In this document: one piece after another, positions 2,890 through 22,042 of the stretch
Layout: the number at the start of each line of letters is the position of its first letter
Position numbering within the stretch: the stretch's first letter is position 1
NCBI GenBank assembly: GCA_965205025.1
Contig: CBDBFU010000015.1
Span: 352,001-416,000 of the forward strand
DNA: 64,000 nt
Direction of reading: 5' to 3'
Source of the DNA: Candidatus Poribacteria bacterium
GTDB lineage: Bacteria; Poribacteria; WGA-4E; WGA-3G
Notes under the pieces: model-generated
The model's input: only the letters and a program-made list of their open reading frames with translations
What the model was told of the DNA's origin: nothing
Databases searched by the model: none
Made by a program: the position numbers and the translations under genes

Positions 2890-3756
2890 TTAGATATTAA
2901 ACCAAGGGGTTACCCAAACATATTTTATATTTAATGCTAATCTCAAGAACATCTTTATGGGTAACGCCATCATTGACAAGAACAAAAAGGAGACAATAAC
3001 GTATCTTACCAGTCCAAGTTGTTGAATGAATTGGCTTGTTTTTCTAAATATGATATAGACGAGGGGACCGAGTGCGAAATATCCAGATACAACGACGAAT
3101 CCGAAGAAACTTGCTGTAACGTCATTACGTATACCGAAAAGGTAGGATAAGTTGATATTAGTTAAAGGTACAATCAGGTGTGGATCCCACTTCTCCCAAG
3201 GCATAAAGATATTCCATCCTGGTCCTCTTAGGAATGTACCGACTATCATCAATACAATCCATAGTATTAGGAATCCGAAACAGAATACTGTAATAGCAAA
3301 TGGACGTTCTTTAAGTGTGTAATACCCTTTTCCTTTAGGGTTGATATCGATATAAGGAATTGCTACCAAACCAGCAATTATAAGCCCTGGTAAGACGACC
3401 CCAGCAATCCAAGGGTCGAAATAGACTAACATCTCCTGTAGTGCGAGGAAATACCACGGTGCTTTGGATGGATTAGGCGTCTTGGCAGGATCACTCATTT
3501 CTTCCAGAGGAGCGTCAATCATAATTGACCAGACACCAAGAACTAACATGACGATTATAGCACAGACAAATTCGTTACGACATAGATATGGCCACACGTA
3601 AACCTTATCATTCAGTTCCGCATCTGATGGAACACCCATCCGATCTGTTTGCCTTGCCTGTTTATATGATAACCAGAGAAAGTATGGTACCAGAAACAAC
3701 ATAGCCAAAATCGGAACATTATCAGGTTTCGATATTAATGCTATAATATTCTCCAT
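2890..3756 (-). CDS. petD: Cytochrome b C-terminal subunit (PetD/subunit IV-like) with extra TM helices
   Basis: DPAKTPNPSKAPWYFLALQE, a variant of the PEWY region; multiple TM segments; follows cytochrome b6. Confidence 0.8.
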   Translation of the reverse strand: MENIIALISKPDNVPILAMLFLVPYFLWLSYKQARQTDRMGVPSDAELNDKVYVWPYLCRNEFVCAIIVMLVLGVWSIMIDAPLEEMSDPAKTPNPSKAPWYFLALQEMLVYFDPWIAGVVLPGLIIAGLVAIPYIDINPKGKGYYTLKERPFAITVFCFGFLILWIVLMIVGTFLRGPGWNIFMPWEKWDPHLIVPLTNINLSYLFGIRNDVTASFFGFVVVSGYFALGPLVYIIFRKTSQFIQQLGLVRYVIVSFLFLSMMALPIKMFLRLALNIKYVWVTPWFNI

Positions 3757-3878
3757 ATCTAAATCAATTCTCCTTTAACTCTGAATTGTCTATAGTTCTC
3801 GTCTAACCTAATTTTATTACCACAGTCATAAAGAGCAATCTTATTTAACTTATCCAATGTATAGCATGTGTCCATTAC

Positions 3879-4652
3879 TTATAGAGGACCGGAGATACCA
3901 CCGTCTTTACGGACACGCCAAAAATGTAACGCCATTAATGCACTTGCAGCCAATGGGACTGCGACACAATGTAGAATGTAGAATCGTAATAGTGTTGACT
4001 CACCTACCATTGTTCCACCGAGTAATGCGAACCGTACATCATTAGATGTTGTTACTATGTCTGTTGGTGTGAAGGGACCTTCATTACCTAAGACCGGTGT
4101 CGCGCTAGCCATGTTAGTCCCGACTGTAACTGCCCAAAATGCAAGTTGGTCCCAAGGTAACAAATACCCCGTAAAACTCAAGAAAAAGGTGATAAGTAAT
4201 AATATGACACCGACTGCCCAATTAAATTCGCGAGGCTTCTTGTATGAACCTGTTAAAAAGACACGGAACATATGAAGCATCACAGATATTACCATTCCAT
4301 GTGCAGCCCATCGATGCATATTTCGTAGGAGCATACCAAAAGGAATATCAAATTCGAAGTTTTGGACATCTTTGAAGGCGTATTCGGCAACTGGACGGTA
4401 GTAAAACATTAACAAAACACCGGTAACAGCAGTCACCAAAAACATGAGAAATGTGATACCTCCCATGCACCAAGTGAATCTAAAGTTTAGGGCGTGGCGT
4501 GAAATGCGGGGTGGATGTAAGTGAAGCCAAACGTTCTGTAGTATTTGTAGTGTGTAGCGTCGGCCGGTGTCTTCATAACCGTGGCGAAAAATTGATTTCC
4601 ATATATCGGAATCGGTAATCTTTTGTTTTAGTCCTTTACGTTCTTCGTTCAT
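3879..4652 (-). CDS. petB: Cytochrome b6-like N-terminal subunit
   Basis: WCMGGITF, RNMHRWAAH, SFTGYLLPWDQ, RFYILH, HFWRVRKDGGISGPL. Confidence 0.92.
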   Translation of the reverse strand: MNEERKGLKQKITDSDIWKSIFRHGYEDTGRRYTLQILQNVWLHLHPPRISRHALNFRFTWCMGGITFLMFLVTAVTGVLLMFYYRPVAEYAFKDVQNFEFDIPFGMLLRNMHRWAAHGMVISVMLHMFRVFLTGSYKKPREFNWAVGVILLLITFFLSFTGYLLPWDQLAFWAVTVGTNMASATPVLGNEGPFTPTDIVTTSNDVRFALLGGTMVGESTLLRFYILHCVAVPLAASALMALHFWRVRKDGGISGPL

Positions 4653-4710
4653 TATCTTCCTTTATATCTATTGATGCGAACATTGACCCTGACGCAATTT
4701 CAACCTGATA

Positions 4711-5199
4711 TTAGACTTTTAAAGATGCCCCAGCATCCTCCCACTGACCTTTTTCACCTAAAAACTTGACTGATTTGTCAATTTGAAGCTGTCCATCTTC
4801 TGCCAAGGTTATTTCAACCCTTTCAAGAGGTCTTGGTGCTGGTCCTTCATAGTTGACCCCATCCCGGTCAAAACCGCTACCGTGACAAGGACACTTGAAT
4901 TTACTTTCTGAACCGAGCCAGCGAGGCGTACAACCAAGGTGTGTACAAGTTGTAAGAAGGGCATAAAATACACCATCTTCTCGTCTTACAATCCAAACCC
5001 CGAAGGGATCTTTTTTGAATTTTTCACTCACACTCCCCGGTGGATATTCTGCAGGAAAACCTGCCTTAAAGATAGATGATGGTTCATAGAGAACTCGTGG
5101 ATAAAGGTACCTAACTAACCCCGGCCCAAAACATAAACCGAGGGCAGCAGTAAAACTTCCCCAACCCAAGGATCTGAAGAAACTACGTCGAGACAACAC
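4711..5199 (-). CDS. petC: Rieske [2Fe-2S] subunit
   Basis: Tat motif SRRSFF; CTHLGC and CPCHGS boxes; GPAPRPL. Confidence 0.93.
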   Translation of the reverse strand: MLSRRSFFRSLGWGSFTAALGLCFGPGLVRYLYPRVLYEPSSIFKAGFPAEYPPGSVSEKFKKDPFGVWIVRREDGVFYALLTTCTHLGCTPRWLGSESKFKCPCHGSGFDRDGVNYEGPAPRPLERVEITLAEDGQLQIDKSVKFLGEKGQWEDAGASLKV

Positions 5200-5453: not shown

Positions 5454-7944
5454 CTACTTAATGATTTTCACATTGATAATTGGACTTTCTTGTACGAATG
5501 GAGTGCCATTGATAACTGCAGTTCCACGGAACTTCACTTGATACGTCTTTGCTTCTAATGTACTAATTGCTTCAAGATCGACTTCAACATCATTCTCATT
5601 CATAGGTATTGTAGCTTCAGGAACGGTAATCCCTTCTGGTATCAGTATAGGAGTAATAGTTACGATATCCGTGAAACTTCCACGACGAACAATACTCATT
5701 GTGAGTGTGGCAGATTTCTTAATGGGATCGACTTGTTCCGCTGTTTCAATATCAGTATTTTCAGTTGGCGAAGGATTTGAGACAGGTACAACCGCTGCAT
5801 CTCCTTCTACAGCAGCAACAGGTTCATCCGCAGTTTTAGACTTTGGAAACACAATGCTAAAACGTAAGGGTTCGATTGTAACTATAAATGGTGCTTCAAG
5901 GACAGTTAGTGGTATAGCCGGTGTGGCTTCAGTATAATTTTCACGGTTTATATTTGCTGACCCTGTCACAGAAATATAACTTGTACCTGGAGTAGGAACT
6001 ACAGAAAACTGTTCTCGGCGTTCAACTGTTCCAGCTCGAAGAGAAATCATAGTACTATTTTTTCCTGCCGAGATAGTGGCTTTTCCACCAGATACCCTTA
6101 CTGGAATACCTGCCACATTTAATGCAATCGCATCATTAAACCCTTCCCTGCGATGTGCAATTACATGGAAATTTGTCGTTTTATTATGAACAACATTTAT
6201 ATCAATATCTGCTACTTCAAGTGTGAAAGGAGGTGCTTCCATCACCGTCAACAAAATCTCTTTTGGAGTTGCTGCAACTTCTATGCGACGACCACCGATT
6301 GAACCAACCCCTACAATAGAAAAAGTATGTAGACCTAAATCTGCATCGTCAGGAGCAGTTATAGTTAACATCGCTTGATTCTGTGTAGGATATAAGATTG
6401 TTGGACTTACAATAAAACCTTTCGGTAGATCGGGTGAATAAAACTTGAGTCCACCCTTGAATCCATCTATCCGAGCTGTTGAAACGGTCATGACAAATGT
6501 ACCACCACGTGAAATACGTGGGTTATCTGTACTCACATTAACCTGAAACCGCGGATTTAAAGGTCGTATCGTAAGTCTATATGGATAGTCTCCACCCCCA
6601 CTGTTATTCAGGTCACGAACAGAAATACCATAATCACCTGCATCTGGAGCAGAAAATCCGATAATTGCATCTGTTCCACTGGCGTCATCATTTACACTGA
6701 TGACTTGTTCTTCAATATCCTCTTCAGATTCACCTTTTTTATGTGAGTATATCGTTAATAAAGGATCTAACTGTGATCGAAATTGCCTGGATTGTACTTC
6801 GATTACGAAGGTTGCGCCTTTTTCCACTGTGATAGAATATCTGTCAACATCCCCGGCTTTTTCTATTTTCCCATTCACTGTTATTGGTGTACCTATTTTG
6901 GTCTCTTCTTTTAATGTATTATTGGGTTCAGTTTCATTCGTCTCGTTAAACTCACCAATAGCAAAAGGGTAAGGGTTCGTCTCTAATCCTTTTTCAGTAT
7001 TAACACGTAATTCCTGAATTCCAGTTGAGGCATCTGGAGATATATTAAGTTGTAACGTATTAAGAGATCCTAAGTTTGCCCCAGCGACAGTAACATTGTT
7101 TGCAGCACCGCGTTTACCTCCGAGAGGGAAAACACTCTGTAGATATGGCAACTCTCCAATGCTTAATCTATATCTGTGATTTCCACCGCCTTGATATCGA
7201 ACATCCCGTAAATATAGTGTGTATTCACCATCAGTCTGTGTTGTGTAATCAATAAAGGAGTCTAAGCCATTTCCATCTTGACTCTTGACAATTTCATTTC
7301 CTGCTGGGTCATATAATTCAATATAGGAATCTAATGCTGATCCCATACGTTGGGCATTAATATCACAGATTAAACGTGCACCTTTTCTGAGATTAAATCG
7401 AAAATAATCCACATCTTCTATAGAGTTAACAGTACCATTGACGGTGACAGGTAATGTTAACACATTCGCTGCATCCATCATACCATTCGGTTCCTGTTCC
7501 ATCATCTCAGGTAAATCACCGACAATAAAATTTTGTGCATTGGAAACACCGTTAGGTGTTATTAACCGTATTTGATGGTTACCTAATGGAGCATCTTCTG
7601 ATATTTCAAATGACAGAACCAGGCGTGGATTTGTCGGTACATCACCAGAGATGCCAGAACCATTAAAACCTAACTGATGCAGACGGAGCTTTGTGCTTAA
7701 TAGTTGCCGTTATACCCTGATTGTTAAACCATATCTCTGCCTTCTCATTAATATTCTTCCCTTCAAGAGTAATATCAATTGTTTGTCCGCGTTGCGCAGC
7801 ACGGGGTGTGATATTTGTCAACTGCGGGGCAACCTGTGCATGTGTGATACCTGCAGCCAAAAAGAGAATCAGGACTATCTGGAAAAGTGATTGCAGTTGT
7901 TTGTGTCCTGTTTTTGCTTTCATACAAAGTGATATATCAGGCAT
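5454..7944 (-). CDS. Secreted multi-PPC (pre-peptidase C-terminal)/Ig-like domain protein of the DUF1501 cluster, frameshifted at ~7665
   Basis: ORFs 7663-7944 (signal peptide, PRAAQRGQT) and 5454-7505 join into ~829 aa if one T is removed from AGG-TTTT-AAT; the gap reads NGSGISG...TPNGVSNAQNFIVGDLPE; EPN and DVDxF/Y motifs. Confidence 0.8.
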
Positions 7945-9353: not shown

Positions 9354-10802
9354 TTAAAAGATACCTGTAATCACTTCACCTTTAACCAATTCGCGTGGTT
9401 GGTCTAAATGGTTCATTACGATGGTATGCGGATCAATTCCGAGTGTATGGTATACCGTCGCAAGTATATCACGTGGATGCACTGGGTTTTCAAGAGGTGT
9501 TGAACCAGTAGCATCGGATTTACCGTATACCTGACCACCTTTGACACCAGCACCAGCGATAAGACCAGTATAGCAATACGGCCAATGATCACGTCCATCA
9601 GGGGCATTACCGTTCCCTGAAGTACTGATACCCATACGAGGTGAACGTCCAAATTCACCAATTGCGAGAACAAGTGTGCTCTCTAACAATCCCCGTTGAT
9701 CTAAATCTTCAAGTAGTGAAGAAACTGCACTGTCTAACTTCGGACAGTGAAGATTTTTCAATGGTCCAAAGTTTGCTGCGTGGGTATCCCATGCAGTAGT
9801 ATTTGGATTACCGTTAGCAACTGATGGCCAGTTCACCTGTACAAAACGAGTGCCAGCTTCTACCAAACGTCGTGCCATGAGTGCACTCTGACCGAATGTA
9901 TGACGACCATACTTATCGCGCATATCATCTGATTCTTGTGTTAAATCAAAGGCATTTCGTGCCTTCTGAGATAAAATCAGATCGTACGCTTTTTCATAAT
10001 ACTCATTCAATGCGAAGGAATCGGCTACCTTGTCAATTTCTGGCATATTAGCGTTAATCGTTTCAAGGAGTGTTTTCCGACGTTGTAAACGCATCGGTGG
10101 CACTTCTGGACGGAGTGACAGATCGTCAAGATTGATCTCTGTGTTCGGATCTTGGAAGAGGAAGTATGGATCATAGGCTCTACCAAGGAAACCAGCATTA
10201 CCACCCTTACCAATGATACCACTTTCTTGCATTGGTCGTGGAAGTTGAACAGCAGCCAACATCGGTTCTTCTGGTGGCTTAAACTTAGAAATATGTGCTG
10301 CAGCATTTGGATGATCAATTGGAGACGGTGGATCAAGTTGTCCAGAAGGAGCAACTTTATCTGGTGTTTCACCTGTTACCATTTGATACATAGCAGCCGT
10401 ATGATTAAATAAACCTGCAGGTGTATAACTTACTGAGCGAATCAGACAGGCTTTATCCATCTGCTGTGCCAATTTCGGCATCGTTTCTGACAACTGAATG
10501 CCAGGTACGTTTGTTGGAATAGGATTAAACTCACCTCGGATATTTGATGGTGCATCCGGTTTTGGATCCCAAATATCTATGTGACTGGGACCGCCTTGCA
10601 AAAATAACAGAATGACAGAATTTGCTTTGCCCCAACCGTTTAGAGGCTTCGCGGCATCAACTGTCGTACTTGCCTTTGCTTGGAGTGACAATACTTGTGG
10701 CAAACTTATGCCCAGCATCGCGGCGCCACCCACGCGGAAAAACTCTCTACGTGAGAACCCGTCACATAATCTCCCGGGCGCTTGTGGTAACGATAACATC
10801 AA
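9354..10802 (-). CDS. DUF1501 domain protein
   Basis: Tat-like SRREFF; LFLQGGPSHIDIWDPKP, ARRLVEAGTRFV, WDTH, GEFGRSP, GRDHWP. Confidence 0.92.
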   Translation of the reverse strand: MMLSLPQAPGRLCDGFSRREFFRVGGAAMLGISLPQVLSLQAKASTTVDAAKPLNGWGKANSVILLFLQGGPSHIDIWDPKPDAPSNIRGEFNPIPTNVPGIQLSETMPKLAQQMDKACLIRSVSYTPAGLFNHTAAMYQMVTGETPDKVAPSGQLDPPSPIDHPNAAAHISKFKPPEEPMLAAVQLPRPMQESGIIGKGGNAGFLGRAYDPYFLFQDPNTEINLDDLSLRPEVPPMRLQRRKTLLETINANMPEIDKVADSFALNEYYEKAYDLILSQKARNAFDLTQESDDMRDKYGRHTFGQSALMARRLVEAGTRFVQVNWPSVANGNPNTTAWDTHAANFGPLKNLHCPKLDSAVSSLLEDLDQRGLLESTLVLAIGEFGRSPRMGISTSGNGNAPDGRDHWPYCYTGLIAGAGVKGGQVYGKSDATGSTPLENPVHPRDILATVYHTLGIDPHTIVMNHLDQPRELVKGEVITGIF

Positions 10803-10862: not shown

Positions 10863-13349
10863 TTAACGGTTGAATAGAAATGCGGGACTGTTGAGTAATG
10901 CCCACATCAGATCTTGCGCACCTTCCTCTTTTGATTCGGCTTTTGCAAGAAATTCTACCGCTGTCGCATATTCAGTTTTCTGTGGTAACCGGGCAAATGT
11001 TGCAAGATACAACTCCTCAACCAAAGTACGATCATCTTTTTTGTCTTTGATGAGTTGTGCAATTCGTCCATTTGGATCAATAATTGCATCCGCAACAGTC
11101 GGACCGTTAATTAGGTTCATGGCGTGTGCTAAACTAACTTCAGTTGTCCGTTCACATTCACACGAACTTTCCCGTTCAGGACGACCAAACAATTTTAGAA
11201 AACCGTCATCCTTAACTTGACTGTCCGGTAATTGTACTGCACGAAAACTTTTCGGCACACCTTGAAACTTAGGTTGACTTCCAGTAGCAACACCAATCGC
11301 ATCCAACAATTGTTCTGCTGTCAAACGACGGGCAGTTGCGTGTGAGAAATTAATACTATCAGATTTATTCCACTTATTCGTTTTAATACTCTGTTGATAT
11401 GTGCGAGATTTGGCAATAGTCTTCATGATATGTCTAATATCAAAACTATTTTCCACGAAATCTTTGGTTAAGGCATCAAGTAATTCAGGATTGCTGGGTG
11501 GATTACTCGTACGGATATCATCCACAGGTTCAATAATACCGCGTCCCATGAAATAACTCCATATACGATTTACACCTGCTTTAGCGAACATTGGATTTTC
11601 TGCAGATGTTAACCATTCAGCAAATGATTCACGCCTATCCTGAGCTTCCTCTTTGATTTCTCCGAATGGTACTGAGGCTTCAACAACTGCTAATGTCCTT
11701 GGGTGTTTGACTGGTGTCGGATTGAAACTTGTATATACAATCTCTTCACCAGGTAATCGGCCATTTTTCAATTGGACATCGGCAAAAAACGCACCCAATT
11801 CGTAGTATTGATTTTGTGTCCATACTTCAAATGGATGGTCATGACATTTATTACATGAGAATCGTACACCAAGGAATAACTGTGTTGTGTTTTCCACTGC
11901 AGCCGTATATTCACGGGACACACGGAAATAACTTGCAGCAGGATTGGAATATGCGCTACCGGTTGCGGTAATCAAGTCATATACAAACTCGTTATATGGA
12001 CGATTTTCAGTAATTTCGTCATGTAACCACTGTTGGAATAACCACATTCCGCGTTCACCGAGGAACTTACGGTTTGACTGTAAAAGGTCTCCCCATTTAT
12101 GTGTCCAATGGTCAACATATTCTGTTGTTTCTACCAATGAATCAATAAGTTTTTCCCGCTTATTCTTAGATGCGGTTGTATCCATCAAGAAATTACGTAC
12201 CTGTTCAGGAGTAGGTGGGAGTCCTGTCATATCAAAATAGATACGACGTACAAATTCTTCATCCGTACAAAGTTCAGCAGGTAAGATTTTTAGTCGTTTC
12301 AGTTTGTTGTGAACATGTGTATCAATATAGTTATACACAGATGTTTCTGCCCACTCGAAACCACTTCTATCTCCCATTACGATAATACCATTTGTACTGT
12401 ATGCACCTTCATAACGGGTTAATATGGCAGTCTCACCTCTACGTTCAGCTGTTACAACACCATCGTCTGTCACTTTAGCAACATCATTTAAACTACTGGT
12501 GAACTTTGCTTCACGGGTCACATCACGGGTCGAACCATCAGCATAGTGTGCGATTACCAACATCTGTTGTTTGTATCCTGGCATTGATAGTTCAGCTGAA
12601 TCAGGTATAACCTCTAACCTTTCAACACGTTTTGTTTTTCCTACATCGGAAACCACCCCTTCACTTATCCACTGGTGGATGAGTTTATAATCACGTGAAT
12701 CAGGTTTAATTACCTGACCCCCTTTATGTGGCACCTCTGATGTCGGCTTGAGTAACATTAAACTCTGTTCAGGGAATGCACGGTTAAATCTTCTTCCTGT
12801 AATGTCTTCAATGAGTAGTTCATAATCGAAATCCGGATCATATCCACGAAGAGATAGTTTAAATCCGTTTTTACCTTTTGCAGAACCATGACAGGTACCG
12901 TTGTTACAACCTGCATGACTCAAAACCGGCATAACATCGCGTACAAAACTCACCGGCGATGCATCAATACTCTTGACTGTTACAGGCAATTCGGTGGTAA
13001 TATTCTTCACCGAGACGGTAATACTGGATGAACCTACTTCTTCTGGAAAGATATAACCATCTTCATGGATCTTAATGCCAGTAGAAGGTTTTAGTTCTGC
13101 CCATGTCGTCACATCAACCCAATTACCATCTTTTGTTTGACCGGATACAAGAATCCGGCGTCCATCTCGTGCATGTTCTAACGTTAATGATTCTGGATGA
13201 ACCTTCAATGCTGTTATTTCTGGTACATCTACACTTTGAACATTCTCCTCCATCTGAGTGATGCCTACGTTAGCATTTATCAAACAAAAAAAGAACACAA
13301 CAAGTAGTGTAGTTGCCAAATTATAACTGAGTTTCACATTAACCTCCAA
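10863..13349 (-). CDS. DUF1549/DUF1553 (PSD1) protein with Ig-like domains
   Basis: SFVRDVMPVLSHAGCNNGTCHG, GFKLSLRG, CNKCHDHPFE, GRGIIEPVDD, FGRPERESSCECER, DLMWALLNSPAFLFNR. Confidence 0.92.
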   Translation of the reverse strand: MEVNVKLSYNLATTLLVVFFFCLINANVGITQMEENVQSVDVPEITALKVHPESLTLEHARDGRRILVSGQTKDGNWVDVTTWAELKPSTGIKIHEDGYIFPEEVGSSSITVSVKNITTELPVTVKSIDASPVSFVRDVMPVLSHAGCNNGTCHGSAKGKNGFKLSLRGYDPDFDYELLIEDITGRRFNRAFPEQSLMLLKPTSEVPHKGGQVIKPDSRDYKLIHQWISEGVVSDVGKTKRVERLEVIPDSAELSMPGYKQQMLVIAHYADGSTRDVTREAKFTSSLNDVAKVTDDGVVTAERRGETAILTRYEGAYSTNGIIVMGDRSGFEWAETSVYNYIDTHVHNKLKRLKILPAELCTDEEFVRRIYFDMTGLPPTPEQVRNFLMDTTASKNKREKLIDSLVETTEYVDHWTHKWGDLLQSNRKFLGERGMWLFQQWLHDEITENRPYNEFVYDLITATGSAYSNPAASYFRVSREYTAAVENTTQLFLGVRFSCNKCHDHPFEVWTQNQYYELGAFFADVQLKNGRLPGEEIVYTSFNPTPVKHPRTLAVVEASVPFGEIKEEAQDRRESFAEWLTSAENPMFAKAGVNRIWSYFMGRGIIEPVDDIRTSNPPSNPELLDALTKDFVENSFDIRHIMKTIAKSRTYQQSIKTNKWNKSDSINFSHATARRLTAEQLLDAIGVATGSQPKFQGVPKSFRAVQLPDSQVKDDGFLKLFGRPERESSCECERTTEVSLAHAMNLINGPTVADAIIDPNGRIAQLIKDKKDDRTLVEELYLATFARLPQKTEYATAVEFLAKAESKEEGAQDLMWALLNSPAFLFNR

Positions 13350-14561: not shown

Positions 14562-16014
14562 CTACATTGGACCGACTCGTTCGGGACCTTTATCCATAGC
14601 AAACATAGAGGTATCAAAACTTCTTTTTAACAAATCTAATTTCGTGCCTTGCATTTCTTGCACATGCCACAAGTTGTTAAATTCATGAGGATCATCAATT
14701 AAATCGTATAGTTCACCTTCTTCATGTCCATGATATGTTACTATCTTATAACGTTTATCCCTAAACATAGTTGCGAAGGAATGGTTCCGCATCCCGAGTG
14801 CATCATAAAACTCACACCGAACAGATGATCGATGTTGATCCGGATCTACTTCCCCTTGAAGGATAGGTAATAATGACCGACCATGCATTTCTGTTGGAAC
14901 TGGTAAGCCAACTAATTCTAATATTGTCGGAACCTTATCTACAAGTTCTACCAAAGCATCACTTTTTAATCCACTTTCGAAACGCGTTGGACACGAAAAA
15001 ATCAACGGCACACGCACTAACCCTTCATAGAATCGACATCCTTTTTGAATTAGTCCATGGTCACCAAGCATCTCGCCATGATCACTTGTAAATATGATAA
15101 CAGTGTTTTCACGTTCTCCCGTTTCATTCAAGACATCTAATATCCTACCCATCTGGTCATCAATTAGTTTTATCATTGCATAGTATGCAGCAATTAATGT
15201 CTTTGCATCTCTTGCTCCAACCGTTTGATCAGGTTTTCTATTCGGTGAGTGGGGTAGTATAGGACTTCGAATATCCAATTCATCTGGTGTTCGGACTTTC
15301 GACTGAAAATCTATATCTGTTAACTTACGTTGTTGTTCTAAATCACTCTCCTTAAAAAAGTGGTTCTGGCATATCATCGGGATTAAATTGTTCTCTATAA
15401 AACTGTGGTGGATTAAATGGTGGATGCGGATCATAAATATTGACACTCGCAAGCCACGGTCCTTCACGTTTTTCACGAATAAACTCAATAGTCTTCTCAG
15501 CACACCATGTCGTCTGGTGTAATTCTGTAGGCACACCTTCTGGATTTTGTGTTAATTCACCGAGAATAGCACCTTTTGTACGAACCCAATCCGCATAGTC
15601 ATGACCTATTTTCCAATCATCTCTCGGTGCATGGCTATAGTGCCAATATCTATATCCGTCATTGACCCGTGGTTCAATCCTACGGAATGCACTTGCTAAA
15701 TGTAATTTGCCAATCAAACCACAGTCATATCCATTATCAGCAAGTGTCTTGGTTACAAGTGGATATGTCTCTGGATAAAAGTCGTTGCCATTACCATTAA
15801 CATGTGTCGCACTTGGATACATACCTGTTAAGAAACTTGACCGACTCGGCGTACATATAGGACTTTGACAATACGCGTGTGTAAATGCTACTCCTTCTTC
15901 AACTAAACTATCAATGTTTGGTGTTGAAACATACGGATTGCCAAGAGCGGCTATTGTGTCATAACGCTGTTGATCAGTACATATCCAAAGGATATTTGGC
16001 TTTTCAACAGACAT
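14562..16014 (-). CDS. Formylglycine-dependent sulfatase, frameshifted at ~15355
   Basis: KPNILWICTDQQR, CTPSR, GKLHL, YDPHPPF in the 5' ORF; SDHGEMLGDHG in the 3' ORF; joined by removing one T from CTTTTTTAAG (~483 aa). Confidence 0.88.
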
Positions 16015-16035
16015 ATATTTAACTCTCTTGTGGAA

Positions 16036-17634
16036 TTACTTTTTAGTTGCTGTAAATCCAGCTGTTTTTATGACTTTTGTCAATTCTTCAACAGATAAAG
16101 TGTCTTTCCGTACTTTAACGGTAGCAACATCGGGTAGAGAGACTTCAGCACTAATTACATTCTGATTTTTTGTAAGTGCATCCTGCACTTTTGCAACACA
16201 AGCTCCTCACGTCATACCTGATACGGCTAATGTGATATCCATACTTGCAGTTGTCTCTATCGGGACAGACATGAATATATTTAACTGTTGACCGGAAATT
16301 GCATCGAATACACGAACTTTTCCATCAAAACCACCGGCTGCAATTTGATTACCATCAGGACTAAATGCAACTGCGAATACACTCACAGTATCACCGGGCA
16401 ATGTAAGAAGTTTTTTGCCATCAACAACATTATATATACGTACTTCACCTGCAGAACTTCCAGTAGCAAATTTACTCCCGTCTGCAGAGAATGCGACTGT
16501 GTCAATGGATCCACCTTGTGGTTCGTATGCTTTAATCAGATTAAAATCGGTATTTCCAACATCTCTACGGGTTTCACGGAACATCTTATATAGACGTGGA
16601 ACTCGGTCTTCGCCGACACTCATGACCTGATCAGCATTTGGATGCCGTGCTATTGCGTTTATCTCTCCATAACCTTTATTACTTGAATTGACATCGTCTA
16701 CAAACGAACCTGTATCTACCTCAACCAATTTAAGTGCCGTATCTCGACTGCAACTTACAAAATGTGAACCGTCTTTAGAAAATACAGTGCCAAACACCCA
16801 GTCTCCATGGTTATCAAATTTAACGATTTCCTTCTCATCAGCAATAGTTATTACACGGACAGTATTATCAGAACACCCAAAAGCAACCTTACTGGCATCT
16901 GAAGAGATGGAGAGTCCATATATTGTGTCATAGGTTGAACGGATGTTTTTAATGAGTTTATTTGTTTCCGTATCCCACAATTGGACTTCACCAAATTGTG
17001 CTGGAGAACCACCTGCTACACCAATTGTCTTGCCATCCATTGTATAGACTATAGATTGGATTCGTCGGGCATTACCTACTAATCGTGCTTTTACTGCATA
17101 ATTCGTAGTATCATATAGTAAGACTTCACTAACACCTGAAATAGCGAGTGTATTACCATCGGGTGAATAAGCCATCGCAGATACAACTGGGGGTACAGTG
17201 TAACTCGGATAGTTTGTTTCACCGGTATTATCTACTTCTTCAGGGGTATCATCGTTAGCCCCTTCAAGAATCCAACGTTTAAAAAGTGCTACCTCTTCAG
17301 CAGTAAGGGGTTCTTGGTTTTGAGGCATTGCTGGCGGATCACCTGAAATAAGTTCTATTATCAAACTTTCATCTGGTTTTCCAGGAATGATTGCTTCTCC
17401 TGCCATCCCACCACGTTTTAACTCCTCATAAGTAGTAACAATTAGATCAGCATTTGGATCACCAGGATGATGACATCCTTGACAACTTCTTTTTAGAATA
17501 GGAAAAATCTGTTTATGGAAACTTACGGGTTCTTGTTTACCATGATTGTCGGCAAATACAAATGGACTTCCTAAAACAAACAGAAGAAGACATATTGTAA
17601 TTAAAAACTGAACCCTAAATTCTGATGATTTCAT
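16036..17634 (-). CDS. Predicted selenoprotein: signal peptide + planctomycete cytochrome c + WD40 propeller + C-terminal HMA domain (Sec at UGA 16207-16209)
   Basis: CQGCH heme motif; WD40 repeats; in-frame continuation past TGA: TLAVSGMT-U-GACVAKVQDALTKNQNVISAEVSL...IKTAGFTATKK to TAA at 16036. Confidence 0.82.
16170..16201 (-). promoter_or_regulatory. Bacterial SECIS-like hairpin
   Basis: AAGUGCA-GGA-UGCACUU stem-loop, first loop G 24 nt after the UGA; possible lower stem UUGU/ACAA. Confidence 0.7.
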
Positions 17635-19268: not shown

Positions 19269-20258
19269 ATGGATCGAAACTTCAACATGATCACTATATT
19301 TACCATCTTTCTATTTACACTTATTGTGATAGGATGTCAAACAGATCAATCTGATAAAAGTACAAACTTAAATACAAGTCAAGCAGAAAAACTTAATGTC
19401 GTCGCAACAATCAGTATGATAACTGATATAGTGGAGAATGTGGGTGGTGACAGAATAAAAGTAACCGGTATTATTGGCGAAGGAGTAGACCCACATCTAT
19501 TTAAACCAACAGCAAGAGATACACAACGACTTCAAGATGCGGATATCATTTTTTACAACGGACTGCATCTTGAAGTGAGAATAACCGGGACAGTCCTTGA
19601 TAAAATGAAAGATAAATCCAAAGCAATTGCTGTCACTGATGGCATTGACAGATCACAACTTCGAGCAACTGAGGAATTCATAGGAGGTTATGATCCTCAT
19701 GTATGGCACGATGTGAGAATATGGATGAAAGCAACTGAGACAGTAAGGGATAAATTAGTTGAAGAAGATCCAAAGAATGCAGAATATTATCAAACGAACA
19801 CAAAAGAATATTTGACAAAGTTACAGAATCTACATAACGACCTACTTCGTCTTGTGTCTCACATACCTTTAGAAAAAAGAGTTTTGATAACAACACACGA
19901 CGCATTTGGTTACCTTGGGAAAGCCTACGGTTTTGAAGTACGTGGATTAATTGGAGTGAACACCGAAAATGAGGTGGGTATCGCAGATGTTACTGAGCTT
20001 GCATCCTTTATTATTAATCGCGGAATATCTACGATGTTCGTTGAATCATCCGCTGCACCACATGGTATAAAAGCCGTTCAAGCTGCTGTTCAAGCCAAAG
20101 GTTACAATGTAAAAATCGGTGGCTCTCTATACGCAGATGCAATGGGAACGCCAGGAACATCAGAAGGAACATATTTAGGCATGATGCGTTATAACGTTGA
20201 TCTCATTTCTAATTCACTACAAACCGAATTAGAATTGGCATATTTTGAGAAAGAATAA
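19269..20258 (+). CDS. Mn/Zn/Fe ABC substrate-binding lipoprotein (TroA/MntA family)
   Basis: GVDPHLFKP, NGLHLE, YDPHVW, THDAFGY, LYADAMG. Confidence 0.92.
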   Translation: MDRNFNMITIFTIFLFTLIVIGCQTDQSDKSTNLNTSQAEKLNVVATISMITDIVENVGGDRIKVTGIIGEGVDPHLFKPTARDTQRLQDADIIFYNGLHLEVRITGTVLDKMKDKSKAIAVTDGIDRSQLRATEEFIGGYDPHVWHDVRIWMKATETVRDKLVEEDPKNAEYYQTNTKEYLTKLQNLHNDLLRLVSHIPLEKRVLITTHDAFGYLGKAYGFEVRGLIGVNTENEVGIADVTELASFIINRGISTMFVESSAAPHGIKAVQAAVQAKGYNVKIGGSLYADAMGTPGTSEGTYLGMMRYNVDLISNSLQTELELAYFEKE

Positions 20259-20863: not shown

Positions 20864-22042
20864 ATGCGAATCATCTTTTATACAGGTAAAGGCGGAGTAG
20901 GAAAAACAACTATCTCCGCAGCCACAGGTATGAAATTGGCATCACTCGGTTATAAAACAATCGTTATTTCTCTTGACGTAGCACATTCCCTAAGAGACTC
21001 ATTTGATAGTGAAGAAAAACTCATCGCACAATCCAACGAAAAACAGATACAAATTGCAGATAACCTCTGGATACAGGAGATAAACGTACAAGAGGCAATC
21101 GTTGAATACTGGGACGAAGTATATAACTACCTACGTTCACTGCTCAACCGCTCCGGCCTTGAAACCCTCGTAGCTGAAGAAATCGCAGTATTCCCCGGTA
21201 TGGAAGAAATATGTGCTCTCCTCTACATAAACCAATACGTCCGTGAAAACAATTACGATGTCATAATCCTTGACTGCGCACCAACAGGCGAATCCCTACG
21301 GTTTGTTAGTATCCCCACCACCCTTGAATGGTACATGAACCGAATCTTCAAATTAGAACGAAATCTCGCCAAAATCGCCGGTCCACTAATAGAAACCGTC
21401 AGCTCTGTTCCAATACCAAAAGACGCATACTTTCAAAATATACAAACACTATTCGATAAACTTGAAGGAATAGATAAAATACTCACCGATCCAAAAATTA
21501 CAACTGTACGTCTTGTAACAAACCCAGAAAAAATTGTAATCAAAGAAACACAACGAGCTTTTATGTACTTTTGTCTATACGGATTATGTATTGATGCAGT
21601 TATTATAAACCGGATTTTTCCAGATGGTGTTGATCTCGAATTCTTTGAAGTTTGGAAACAAACACAACAACACTATATAGACGAAGCAAATAATTATTTC
21701 TCCGATGTTCCTGTATGGAAAGTAAACCTATTTGGAGACCAAATTATCGGGGAAAACGGTCTACGGAAACTTGGTGATGTACTCTACGCAGATATAGATC
21801 CAGCAGAACGGTTTGCCGACCAAAGTCCATACAAATTTACGAAAACGAATGAGCTGTATCAACTTACTATGCAATTGCCCTTCTTGACGAAAGATGAAGT
21901 AAATCTAACAAAACACGGAGATGAACTCATTGTTACAATCGGTGGGTTTAAACGGCACGTCGCAATTCCACGAAGTTTGGTAGACAGTAAAGTCTCTGGA
22001 GCAAAATTAACAGGGCAGCAACTTGTTATCACATTCAAGTAA
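20864..22042 (+). CDS. ArsA/GET3-family ATPase with C-terminal HSP20-like domain
   Basis: GKGGVGKTT, SLDVAHSL, FPGMEE, DCAPTG, DELIVTIGGFKRH. Confidence 0.9.
   Translation: MRIIFYTGKGGVGKTTISAATGMKLASLGYKTIVISLDVAHSLRDSFDSEEKLIAQSNEKQIQIADNLWIQEINVQEAIVEYWDEVYNYLRSLLNRSGLETLVAEEIAVFPGMEEICALLYINQYVRENNYDVIILDCAPTGESLRFVSIPTTLEWYMNRIFKLERNLAKIAGPLIETVSSVPIPKDAYFQNIQTLFDKLEGIDKILTDPKITTVRLVTNPEKIVIKETQRAFMYFCLYGLCIDAVIINRIFPDGVDLEFFEVWKQTQQHYIDEANNYFSDVPVWKVNLFGDQIIGENGLRKLGDVLYADIDPAERFADQSPYKFTKTNELYQLTMQLPFLTKDEVNLTKHGDELIVTIGGFKRHVAIPRSLVDSKVSGAKLTGQQLVITFK

Follow-up and report, generated by a model that had tools for sequence, protein, structure and literature searches.

In the current analysis of a 64,000-nucleotide stretch of DNA from a Candidatus Poribacteria bacterium (contig CBDBFU010000015.1, positions 352,001 to 416,000; the whole stretch is referred to as the window and coordinates are counted from its first letter), a gene on the minus strand at 16036..17634 has been identified as very probably a genuine selenoprotein gene, in which the UGA at codon 476 is read as selenocysteine (Sec, U). 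The predicted product is an exported protein made up of a c-type cytochrome domain of the PSCyt1 family, a WD40 β-propeller and a C-terminal heavy-metal-associated (HMA) domain with Sec at the place of the first cysteine of its motif. The Sec reading is preferred because the coding structure, the conservation, a selenocysteine insertion sequence (SECIS) element and the Sec machinery are all present. The features of the gene are given below.

16036..17634, minus strand: predicted complete selenoprotein coding sequence, 532 codons and TAA, from translation and from full-length orthologues with a single in-frame TGA; a 475-residue protein in public databases.
17551..17634, minus strand: predicted signal peptide of the Sec export type, residues 1-28, MKSSEFRVQFLITICLLLFVLGSPFVFA then DN, by inspection.
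17323..17484, minus strand: PSCyt1 c-type cytochrome domain, residues 51-104 (Pfam PF07635, 36.7 bits, cut-off 22).
16255..17187, minus strand: seven-bladed WD40 β-propeller, about residues 150-460 (Pfam WD40, 96.8 bits; AlphaFold2; Foldseek).
16054..16233, minus strand: HMA domain, residues 468-527, with the motif G-M-T-U476-G-A-C479 (Pfam PF00403, 39 bits, cut-off 24.8).
16207..16209, minus strand: UGA codon predicted to encode selenocysteine U476; TGA in 36/36 TGA-type orthologues aligned, TGT or TGC in the 9 Cys-type ones.
16174..16190, minus strand: predicted SECIS hairpin AAGUGCA-GGA-UGCACUU, within the codons K482-V-Q-D-A-L487 for helix α1 of the HMA domain.

The open reading frame (ORF) as usually called runs from an ATG at 17634 to 16207, encodes 475 residues and is closed by the TGA at 16209..16207 after ...VSGMT. 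Beyond this TGA the frame stays open as GACVAKVQDAL...IKTAGFTATKK until the TAA at 16038..16036, the minus-strand letters at the site being GGT ATG ACG TGA GGA GCT TGT GTT GCA AAA GTG CAG GAT GCA CTT. When the TGA is read as U, a protein of 532 residues results, in which U476 occupies the first Cys of the HMA motif GMTCxxC. A preliminary description of this DNA, made from the letters alone, had claimed an ORF that stops at SGMT-TGA with its frame continuing to a TAA at 16036, a TGA exactly at the first Cys of GMTCxxC giving Sec476 in a 532-residue protein, a perfect 7-bp hairpin with a loop G 24 nt downstream, and an architecture of haem c, propeller and HMA domain. All of these are borne out by the coordinates given here and by the Pfam matches to PSCyt1, WD40 and HMA.

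The predicted signal peptide has, by inspection, a charged n-region, a hydrophobic core and small residues preceding the cut, and a motif SPF.xAD(N/G)H in this region is kept among the orthologues of the genus. The haem-binding motif of the PSCyt1 domain is C51-Q-G-C54-H55 and M103 is a candidate axial ligand. C51, Q52, G53, C54, H55, M103 and P104 are invariant in the 38 aligned sequences, and the invariance of C51, C54 and H55 together with M103 fits a putative His/Met-ligated c-type haem. The structure was modelled by AlphaFold2 on the 38-sequence alignment with a mean predicted local distance difference test (pLDDT) of 78.7 and a predicted template modelling (TM) score, pTM, of 0.70. The propeller is modelled mostly at pLDDT 85-96 and is matched by Foldseek to the seven-bladed propeller 7bie_A with a target-normalised TM score of 0.91. 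The HMA domain (pLDDT 78-92) has the β-α-β-β-α-β fold by DSSP on the model (β1 464-472, α1 477-488, β2 493-499, β3 503-509, α2 515-524, β4 528-531), with U476 standing immediately before α1. The haem domain is poorly modelled (pLDDT 40-67), because the model contains no haem. Neither a sequence search of the PDB nor a Foldseek comparison with it gave a solved structure with the same architecture; the matches were confined to generic WD40 propellers and the HMA domain of ATP7B.

The source genome (5.66 Mb, 95% complete) encodes the machinery for selenocysteine, a search for which had been proposed in the preliminary description. The selB gene (366 bits, cut-off 242) and a tRNA-Sec gene (78.5 bits, cut-off 47) are immediate neighbours, and selA (599 bits) and selD (364 bits) are likewise over their curated cut-offs. 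TGA also serves as an ordinary stop in this genome; of the 2206 stop-to-stop frames that reach 300 codons or more, it closes 384 (17%). The selD gene (C4:104148-105074) has an in-frame TGA of its own (...VKCAGUASKLAPG...), and the fold downstream of it looks unlike the SECIS of the HMA genes; the selenophosphate synthetase SelD is probably itself also a selenoprotein.

Orthologues, defined by an E-value of at most 1e-100, have been identified in 133 of the 176 phylum genomes that were searched in all six frames. The match extends to about residue 530 with exactly one TGA in 112 genomes (110 of the window's family, G081 and G039) and without any stop in nine, and it ends near residue 462 in 12. 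Three of these 12 genomes (G042, G048 and G057 of another family, f4) carry a TGA-type HMA domain behind a longer linker. The 133 genomes are made up of 115 with a Sec (TGA) form, 9 with a Cys form and 9 without the HMA domain, in which the protein stops after the propeller. Family members outside the genus were counted by the extent of the match and the number of TGA codons, and the motif was read directly in the fetched loci. Protein similarity yielded 36 TGA-type loci, 32 from the window's genus and four from f4, and the motif reads G-M-(T/M)-U-x-x-C in every one of them; a separate search with a DNA pattern turned up at least 35 long-form loci with GMTUxxC in named Poribacteria metagenome-assembled genomes (MAGs). 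The nine Cys-type orthologues have TGT or TGC at the TGA column as GM(T/S)CxxC, so the Cys/TGA pairing for which a look at the homologues had been advised exists, with 9 Cys orthologues and 115 TGA genomes at the same column. The two x residues of UxxC vary freely (GA, GV, SA, PA, AG, AS, TV, VA, AL, PV).

The homologues listed in public databases (120 entries) are all 440-494 residues long and cover at most 89% of the query, and are therefore cut at the TGA. The close ones are named 'hypothetical protein [Candidatus Poribacteria bacterium]' or 'WD40 repeat protein'. The present reading corrects the annotation of a gene that occurs in most of the Poribacteria genomes examined (133/176), and of which 120 listed entries end at the UGA. 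Proteins with PSCyt1 and WD40 domains are common in the phylum and in metagenomes and share the N-terminal haem c and propeller with the protein of the window, but an HMA domain was present in none of the eight distant homologues scanned. A search for homologues of the whole protein was swamped by giant WD40 proteins and returned no match past residue 480 and no further Cys forms. Among the PSCyt1 and WD40 proteins, as judged by these comparisons, only this orthologue group has the Sec-HMA tail.

The tail following the TGA is a coding region under purifying selection. In a codon alignment of the 36 TGA-type orthologues, with pairwise Nei-Gojobori estimates on 14 randomly drawn sequences, the ratio of non-synonymous to synonymous substitution (dN/dS) is 0.06 for the body of the gene, 0.118 for the 56 codons after U and 0.089 for the tail without the hairpin codons. 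The preliminary description had staked its reading on conservation of the downstream frame and of the hairpin, and both are conserved, the tail by this ratio and the hairpin by a core that is intact in 33/36 loci.

The hairpin consists of a 5' arm AAGUGCA (16190..16184), a loop GGA (16183..16181) and a 3' arm UGCACUU (16180..16174) joined in 7 perfect pairs, and the first G of the loop is the 24th base after the UGA. The model of bacterial SECIS (bSECIS) elements in the Fig. 2 legend of PMC13188914 specifies a loop of 3-9 nt with the pattern N1-G-[G|U]-N-N2, a stem of 4-16 bp, a spacing of 16-37 nt and an energy of at most -7.5 kcal/mol. The present hairpin agrees with it in all four respects, with the loop A-GGA-U, a stem of 7 bp, a spacing of 23 nt and -9.9 kcal/mol.

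The codons under this hairpin are the most constrained at the synonymous level in the whole gene. K482-L487, with 0.081 against an average of 0.671, has the lowest synonymous diversity of 382 six-codon windows, and every one of the five lowest windows shares codons with it. V483 is GTG in 36/36 sequences, Q484 is CAG in 35/35, A486 is GCA in 35/36 and L487 is CTT in 36/36, and each of the four is the sole column with a single codon among the conserved columns of its residue (16 Val, 5 Gln, 12 Ala and 16 Leu). An unaltered 13-nt core, GUGCAGGNUGCAC, is present in 33 of the 36 TGA-type loci, and the three exceptions differ from it by one base each, one (L045) giving a U.G pair and two (L031 and L055) opening the closing pair to form a 5-nt loop. 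The core occurs three times in the 5.66-Mb genome, counting either strand, and each copy lies 21 nt after the in-frame TGA of a GMTUxxC motif.

Comparison with the Cys forms separates the RNA signal from the protein it lies in. The codon after CAG, that of residue 485 (window 16182-16180), has G as its first base in every Sec form (D, G, A, V) and A in 9/9 Cys forms (N, S, T). None of the Cys forms has GG in its loop, which makes this GG a mark of the Sec forms. The other hairpin codons also drift in the Cys forms: Val becomes GTA, Gln CAA and Ala GCG, and the Leu position has CTC, CTA or ATC. From these alignments, both the loop GG and the strict choice of codons are specific to the TGA forms, and the GG of the SECIS loop seems to dictate the amino acids allowed at residue 485. 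This would be an RNA signal shaping a protein sequence, since the residue two positions after the conserved Val would need a G-initial codon because of the SECIS loop.

Several observations weigh against this reading of the hairpin. For the 60 nt following the UGA the folding energy is -9.9 kcal/mol (z = -0.25), a value equalled by 78 of 200 shuffled sequences, and folding energy was dropped as evidence since the 60-nt fold is no better than the shuffles; the 25-nt hairpin alone has z = -2.45 with 6/200 shuffles equally good. The 3-nt loop is the minimum that the bSECIS model allows. Six of the nine Cys forms still fold a weaker hairpin of 5-6 bp with a G.U pair and three have lost it, so that part of the hairpin, by this comparison, either follows incidentally from coding for the K-V-Q-x-A-L helix or survives as a fossil from an ancestor with Sec. 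No compensatory double change occurs in the hairpin among the aligned orthologues, and its support comes from invariance and not from covariation. An Rfam scan of 15950-16350 with E up to 10 gave four chance-level matches and no SECIS family, a null result that is uninformative because bacterial SECIS elements are poorly covered there. What goes beyond chance is the conservation of the hairpin and its association with TGA, not its energy.

It could be argued that the TGA is a true stop and that the HMA-coding tail is an untranslated relic or a separate small gene. The gene callers behind all 120 listed database proteins ended at this TGA, and TGA is a normal stop in the genome. Yet the tail is in frame without a second stop in 115 genomes with a dN/dS of 0.12, and the Cys forms encode the same domain in one uninterrupted ORF. 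A separate gene would have to begin at the sole internal start, the GTG at V483, and so drop the metal-binding motif, and a relic would not retain a SECIS hairpin under synonymous constraint. We consider a true stop very improbable. A reading of the UGA without selenium, by reassignment of the code to Trp or Gly or by near-cognate suppression, and a plain sequencing error are together more improbable still. TGA closes 17% of the long frames, the f4 orthologues end their own ORFs with TGA, the homologues have Cys and not Trp or Gly in that column, and the Sec machinery is complete; as to sequencing error, the codon is present in short-read contigs and in the 115 genomes.

The preliminary description had asked for the TGA to be confirmed in raw reads, and it is seen in a contig from sequencing run X1 that spans 16174-17298 with zero differences; X1 may be the window's own sample, and the contig is thus not independent. 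Longer contigs from runs X3 and X4, which stem from relatives at about 94-96% identity, also span the codon and, among the 40 differences listed, have none at 16207-16209. Many short contigs match 16171-16225 only, and the contig depth at 16124-16225 rises to 668 in X1 against about 36-65 around it. The spike is caused by numerous unrelated short contigs whose match is limited to the roughly 50 bases coding for GMTUxxC and the hairpin. The pile-up fits a Sec-HMA/SECIS unit conserved in nucleotide sequence and common to several genes.

In the mechanism proposed here, SelB carrying Sec-tRNA(Sec) would recognise the hairpin 16190..16174, 23 nt after the UGA and within the coding sequence, and the ribosome would insert selenocysteine at codon 476 rather than stopping. 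The product of 532 residues would be exported by its N-terminal signal peptide and would consist of a mono-haem PSCyt1 domain, the seven-bladed WD40 propeller and the C-terminal HMA domain with U476-x-x-C479. In the periplasm the U476/C479 pair may bind a soft metal ion, the tethered haem may supply electrons to the Se/S site or remove them, and the protein may work with the products of the downstream DUF1549/DUF1553 and DUF1501 genes.

The HMA family is known to bind soft metals via CxxC, as in MerP, CopZ and the N-termini of P1B-type ATPases. By analogy with these proteins, a metal-binding role of the Sec-HMA domain is proposed tentatively, as possible rather than probable. That the bound metal would be Cu(I) in particular is doubtful; Cu(I) is ranked first because a CopA-type exporter is present in the genome and there is no MerA over its cut-off and no MerT. 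The best match to MerA scores 383.9 vs a cut-off of 454.45 and MerT has no match in this 95% complete genome, and mercury handling was accordingly ranked under copper. Certain points tell against the assignment. The metal-binding role is taken solely from the name of the HMA family, all NCBIfam models of MerP and CopZ score under their cut-offs, the haem domain is placed unreliably by AlphaFold2, and the cluster partners DUF1549/DUF1553 and DUF1501 are families without known function.

Redox chemistry is another reading of the same site, unlikely but a serious competitor of metal binding. Here U476xxC479 would still contain Sec and would cycle between the selenol/thiol and the selenenylsulfide, with the fused haem c as electron donor or acceptor of a periplasmic oxidoreductase working with the DUF1549/1553 and DUF1501 proteins. 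Thiol oxidoreductases make up the majority of the UxxC selenoproteins tabulated in PMC13188914. The same polypeptide contains a haem c domain whose CxxCH and M103 are invariant, the neighbouring PSCyt2 protein has a CxxCH motif too, and the exported HMA domains of this genome use Sec and the cytoplasmic one Cys. The domain nevertheless scores as HMA, a family known for metal binding and not for catalysis; the freely varying x residues of UxxC fit a metal loop, and stand-alone Sec-HMA lipoproteins exist without a redox partner domain.

The UGA might also act as a selenium-dependent switch, giving the 532-residue protein with selenium and a functional 475-residue cytochrome and propeller protein without it. 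Insertion of selenocysteine in bacteria is of low efficiency, and nine orthologues in other genera end naturally after the propeller, so that a short form is viable. The HMA-less orthologues examined (L081 and L082, 2/2) are however unlinked to DUF1549/1553-DUF1501 and may do a different job, and the purifying selection on the tail shows that the long form matters, not that the short form is used. Such a switch is clearly improbable.

A combination of the metal-binding proposal with the haem is more speculative yet, with a slightly smaller chance of being right. The protein could act in the periplasm as a metal trap that recharges itself or as a metal reductase, with haem c passing respiratory electrons to the selenenylsulfide or to the metal. 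A CxxC site in the oxidising periplasm would lock as a disulfide, which may be why Sec is found in 3/3 exported HMA domains and Cys only in the cytoplasmic one. If this were true, the haem would keep the site reduced or alter the redox state of the metal before its hand-over to the DUF1549/1553-DUF1501 partners, and a first functional handle would be gained on the very large DUF1549/1553 and DUF1501 families, along with a selenium-dependent choice between isoforms of 475 and 532 residues.

The genome encodes four HMA domains, and three of them, all with export signals, carry a TGA. Besides the gene of the window these are two adjacent small Sec-HMA genes at C23:110639-111016 (126 residues) and 111128-111487 (120 residues). 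Their lipobox-type signals are LTGC and VMGC, their HMA motifs GMTUGSC and GMTUGNC, and their Pfam HMA scores 37.8 and 38.7 bits. They resemble the protein of the window in GMTUxxC, in the identical 13-nt SECIS core and in its spacing, and differ from it in being stand-alone lipoproteins of 120-126 residues with no cytochrome or propeller. The sole Cys-type HMA domain stands at the N-terminal end of a P1B-type copper ATPase (TIGR01511, 613.7 bits, cut-off 397; a CopA-type exporter), and such a domain is cytoplasmic in that family. The Sec codon and the SECIS within HMA helix 1 would form a portable unit, which this one genome uses in three or more genes and which is seen also in a few Verrucomicrobiota and Planctomycetota MAGs.

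The 80 loci fetched with the DNA pattern, among the matches listed, comprise 35 of the long form, 33 small ones (often tandem) and 12 chance matches without an HMA motif. Tandem pairs of small Sec-HMA genes recur in many Poribacteria MAGs, where standard gene calling would truncate them. Small Sec-HMA genes with the same SECIS core also occur beyond Poribacteria, in an Akkermansiaceae MAG (L103), a Planctomycetota MAG (L128) and an uncultured bacterium (L091). The Sec-HMA/SECIS unit is either old or horizontally spread in lineages of the Planctomycetota-Verrucomicrobiota-Chlamydiota (PVC) type. One further locus (L122, JAJEBZ010000016.1, 1801-1834) has the Sec-HMA motif KGMAUGVC near the N-terminus with the frame open for 437 further codons, and is a possible further and different Sec-HMA fusion protein.

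Sec-containing HMA-like proteins had been predicted before, as was stated in the preliminary description, and NF041115, NF045683, PMC2398784 and PMC13188914 bear this out. The NCBIfam family NF041115, 'metal-binding (seleno)protein', shares with the present domain the HMA-type fold and a Sec that comes first in the motif, and it aligns over model positions 5-70 of 74 with a score of 34.7-40.1 bits against a cut-off of 95. It is a small stand-alone protein with UxxU, whereas the UxxC domain of the window is the C-terminal part of a 532-residue cytochrome and propeller protein. NF045683, 'MerT/CopZ fusion-like heavy metal transport selenoprotein', resembles it in using Sec for the first Cys of a CopZ/MerP-like domain fused to another module; this model is not among the matches of the window protein and scores 40.6 bits (cut-off 375) on a small Sec-HMA paralogue. 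The Sec families predicted in Global Ocean Sampling (GOS) data include, in PMC2398784, 'cation-transporting ATPase E1-E2 (UxxC)' and 'MerP'. The fusion partners in NF045683 and in the GOS families are membrane transporters, unlike the exported haem c and WD40 propeller found here. MerT selenoproteins are predicted in a 2022 preprint (10.1101/2022.07.06.499078). MerP (TIGR02052) and CopZ have in common with the present domain the β-α-β-β-α-β fold and a GMTCxxC-type motif at the junction of loop 1 and helix 1, but use Cys in place of Sec and score 32.8 bits (cut-off 92.55) and about 35 bits (cut-offs 85-95), respectively. All NCBIfam metallochaperone and selenoprotein models are under their cut-offs, and the protein is therefore assigned to none of them.

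Proteins with PSCyt1 and WD40 domains appear, in the passages available of PMC3909097, as 'WD40 repeat protein' or as eukaryote-like repeat proteins of Poribacteria, and those passages of this single-cell genomics paper make no mention of selenium. The term 'WD40' is absent from the review text of PMC13188914. A full-text literature search found no paper combining selenoprotein, heavy-metal-associated, SECIS and bacteria, with supplements and subscription journals lying outside it; papers found for Poribacteria and selenocysteine have nothing on this gene in their titles or retrieved passages. The preliminary description knew of no account of such a fusion, and none with haem c, propeller and Sec-HMA was found in the literature or curated models searched. 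Sec-HMA proteins as such are already predicted; the cytochrome/propeller/Sec-HMA fusion is new, in that no paper or curated model of it was found. The selenoproteins whose selenium probably serves to bind a metal, and not to catalyse redox chemistry, are few, and the fusion would extend their list by a new architecture. At least one abundant 'eukaryote-like' WD40 protein of sponge symbionts is thereby predicted to be a periplasmic cytochrome-linked protein.

The gene neighbourhood was compared in 20 loci of 20 kb. The neighbouring genes of the window that enter this comparison are the following.

14562..16014, minus strand: sulfatase gene (Pfam Sulfatase and SGSH_C), next downstream in the window's genus only.
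10863..13349, minus strand: PSCyt2 (DUF1549)/PSD1 (DUF1553) protein of 828 residues (Pfam 159.8 and 162.8 bits).
9354..10802, minus strand: DUF1501 protein of 482 residues (Pfam 350.7 bits), with 80-96% identity across the linked loci.
5454..7505, minus strand: PPC-domain protein of 683 residues (Pfam PPC 53.4 bits), last conserved member of the cluster.

A DUF1549/DUF1553 gene and then a DUF1501 gene follow downstream on the same strand in 16 of the 20 loci, in agreement with the earlier claim that the gene heads a DUF1501 cluster, and a selenoprotein is thus linked to DUF1549/DUF1553-DUF1501 gene pairs. The PPC gene lies beyond DUF1501 in 13 of the 16 linked loci, and in the other three the 20-kb stretch may end first. 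The DUF1549/DUF1553 and DUF1501 genes directly adjoin the gene in the Cys form of G044 and in four f4 Sec forms. In the window's genus the sulfatase gene and a gene for 272 residues are inserted before the partners, some members being without one or both. Two members of the genus carry the gene elsewhere, and the two HMA-less orthologues examined are unlinked, as stated above. The CxxCH motif of the downstream PSCyt2 protein was read from orthologue translations.

The sulfatase gene appears in the window as two overlapping frames, 16014..15352 and 15536..14562, and as one frame in 8/8 relatives. Contigs of X1, X3 and X4 all omit one base at 15354, in a run of T, and the split of the frame is an assembly error at this position.

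Genes for a Rieske protein (4711-5199), a cytochrome b N-terminal part (3879-4652) and a cytochrome b C-terminal part (2890-3756), all on the minus strand, are found downstream of the cluster. A conserved link to these Rieske/cytochrome b genes (2890-5199) was considered and rejected; they are present in L074 and absent within reach in L070 and L076-L080. A gene for a ZnuA-type periplasmic metal-binding protein (19269-20258, plus strand) is placed divergently upstream, with an opposite-strand ZnuA match in 7 of 13 loci of the genus, and is followed by a gene for an ArsA-type ATPase (20864-22042, plus strand).

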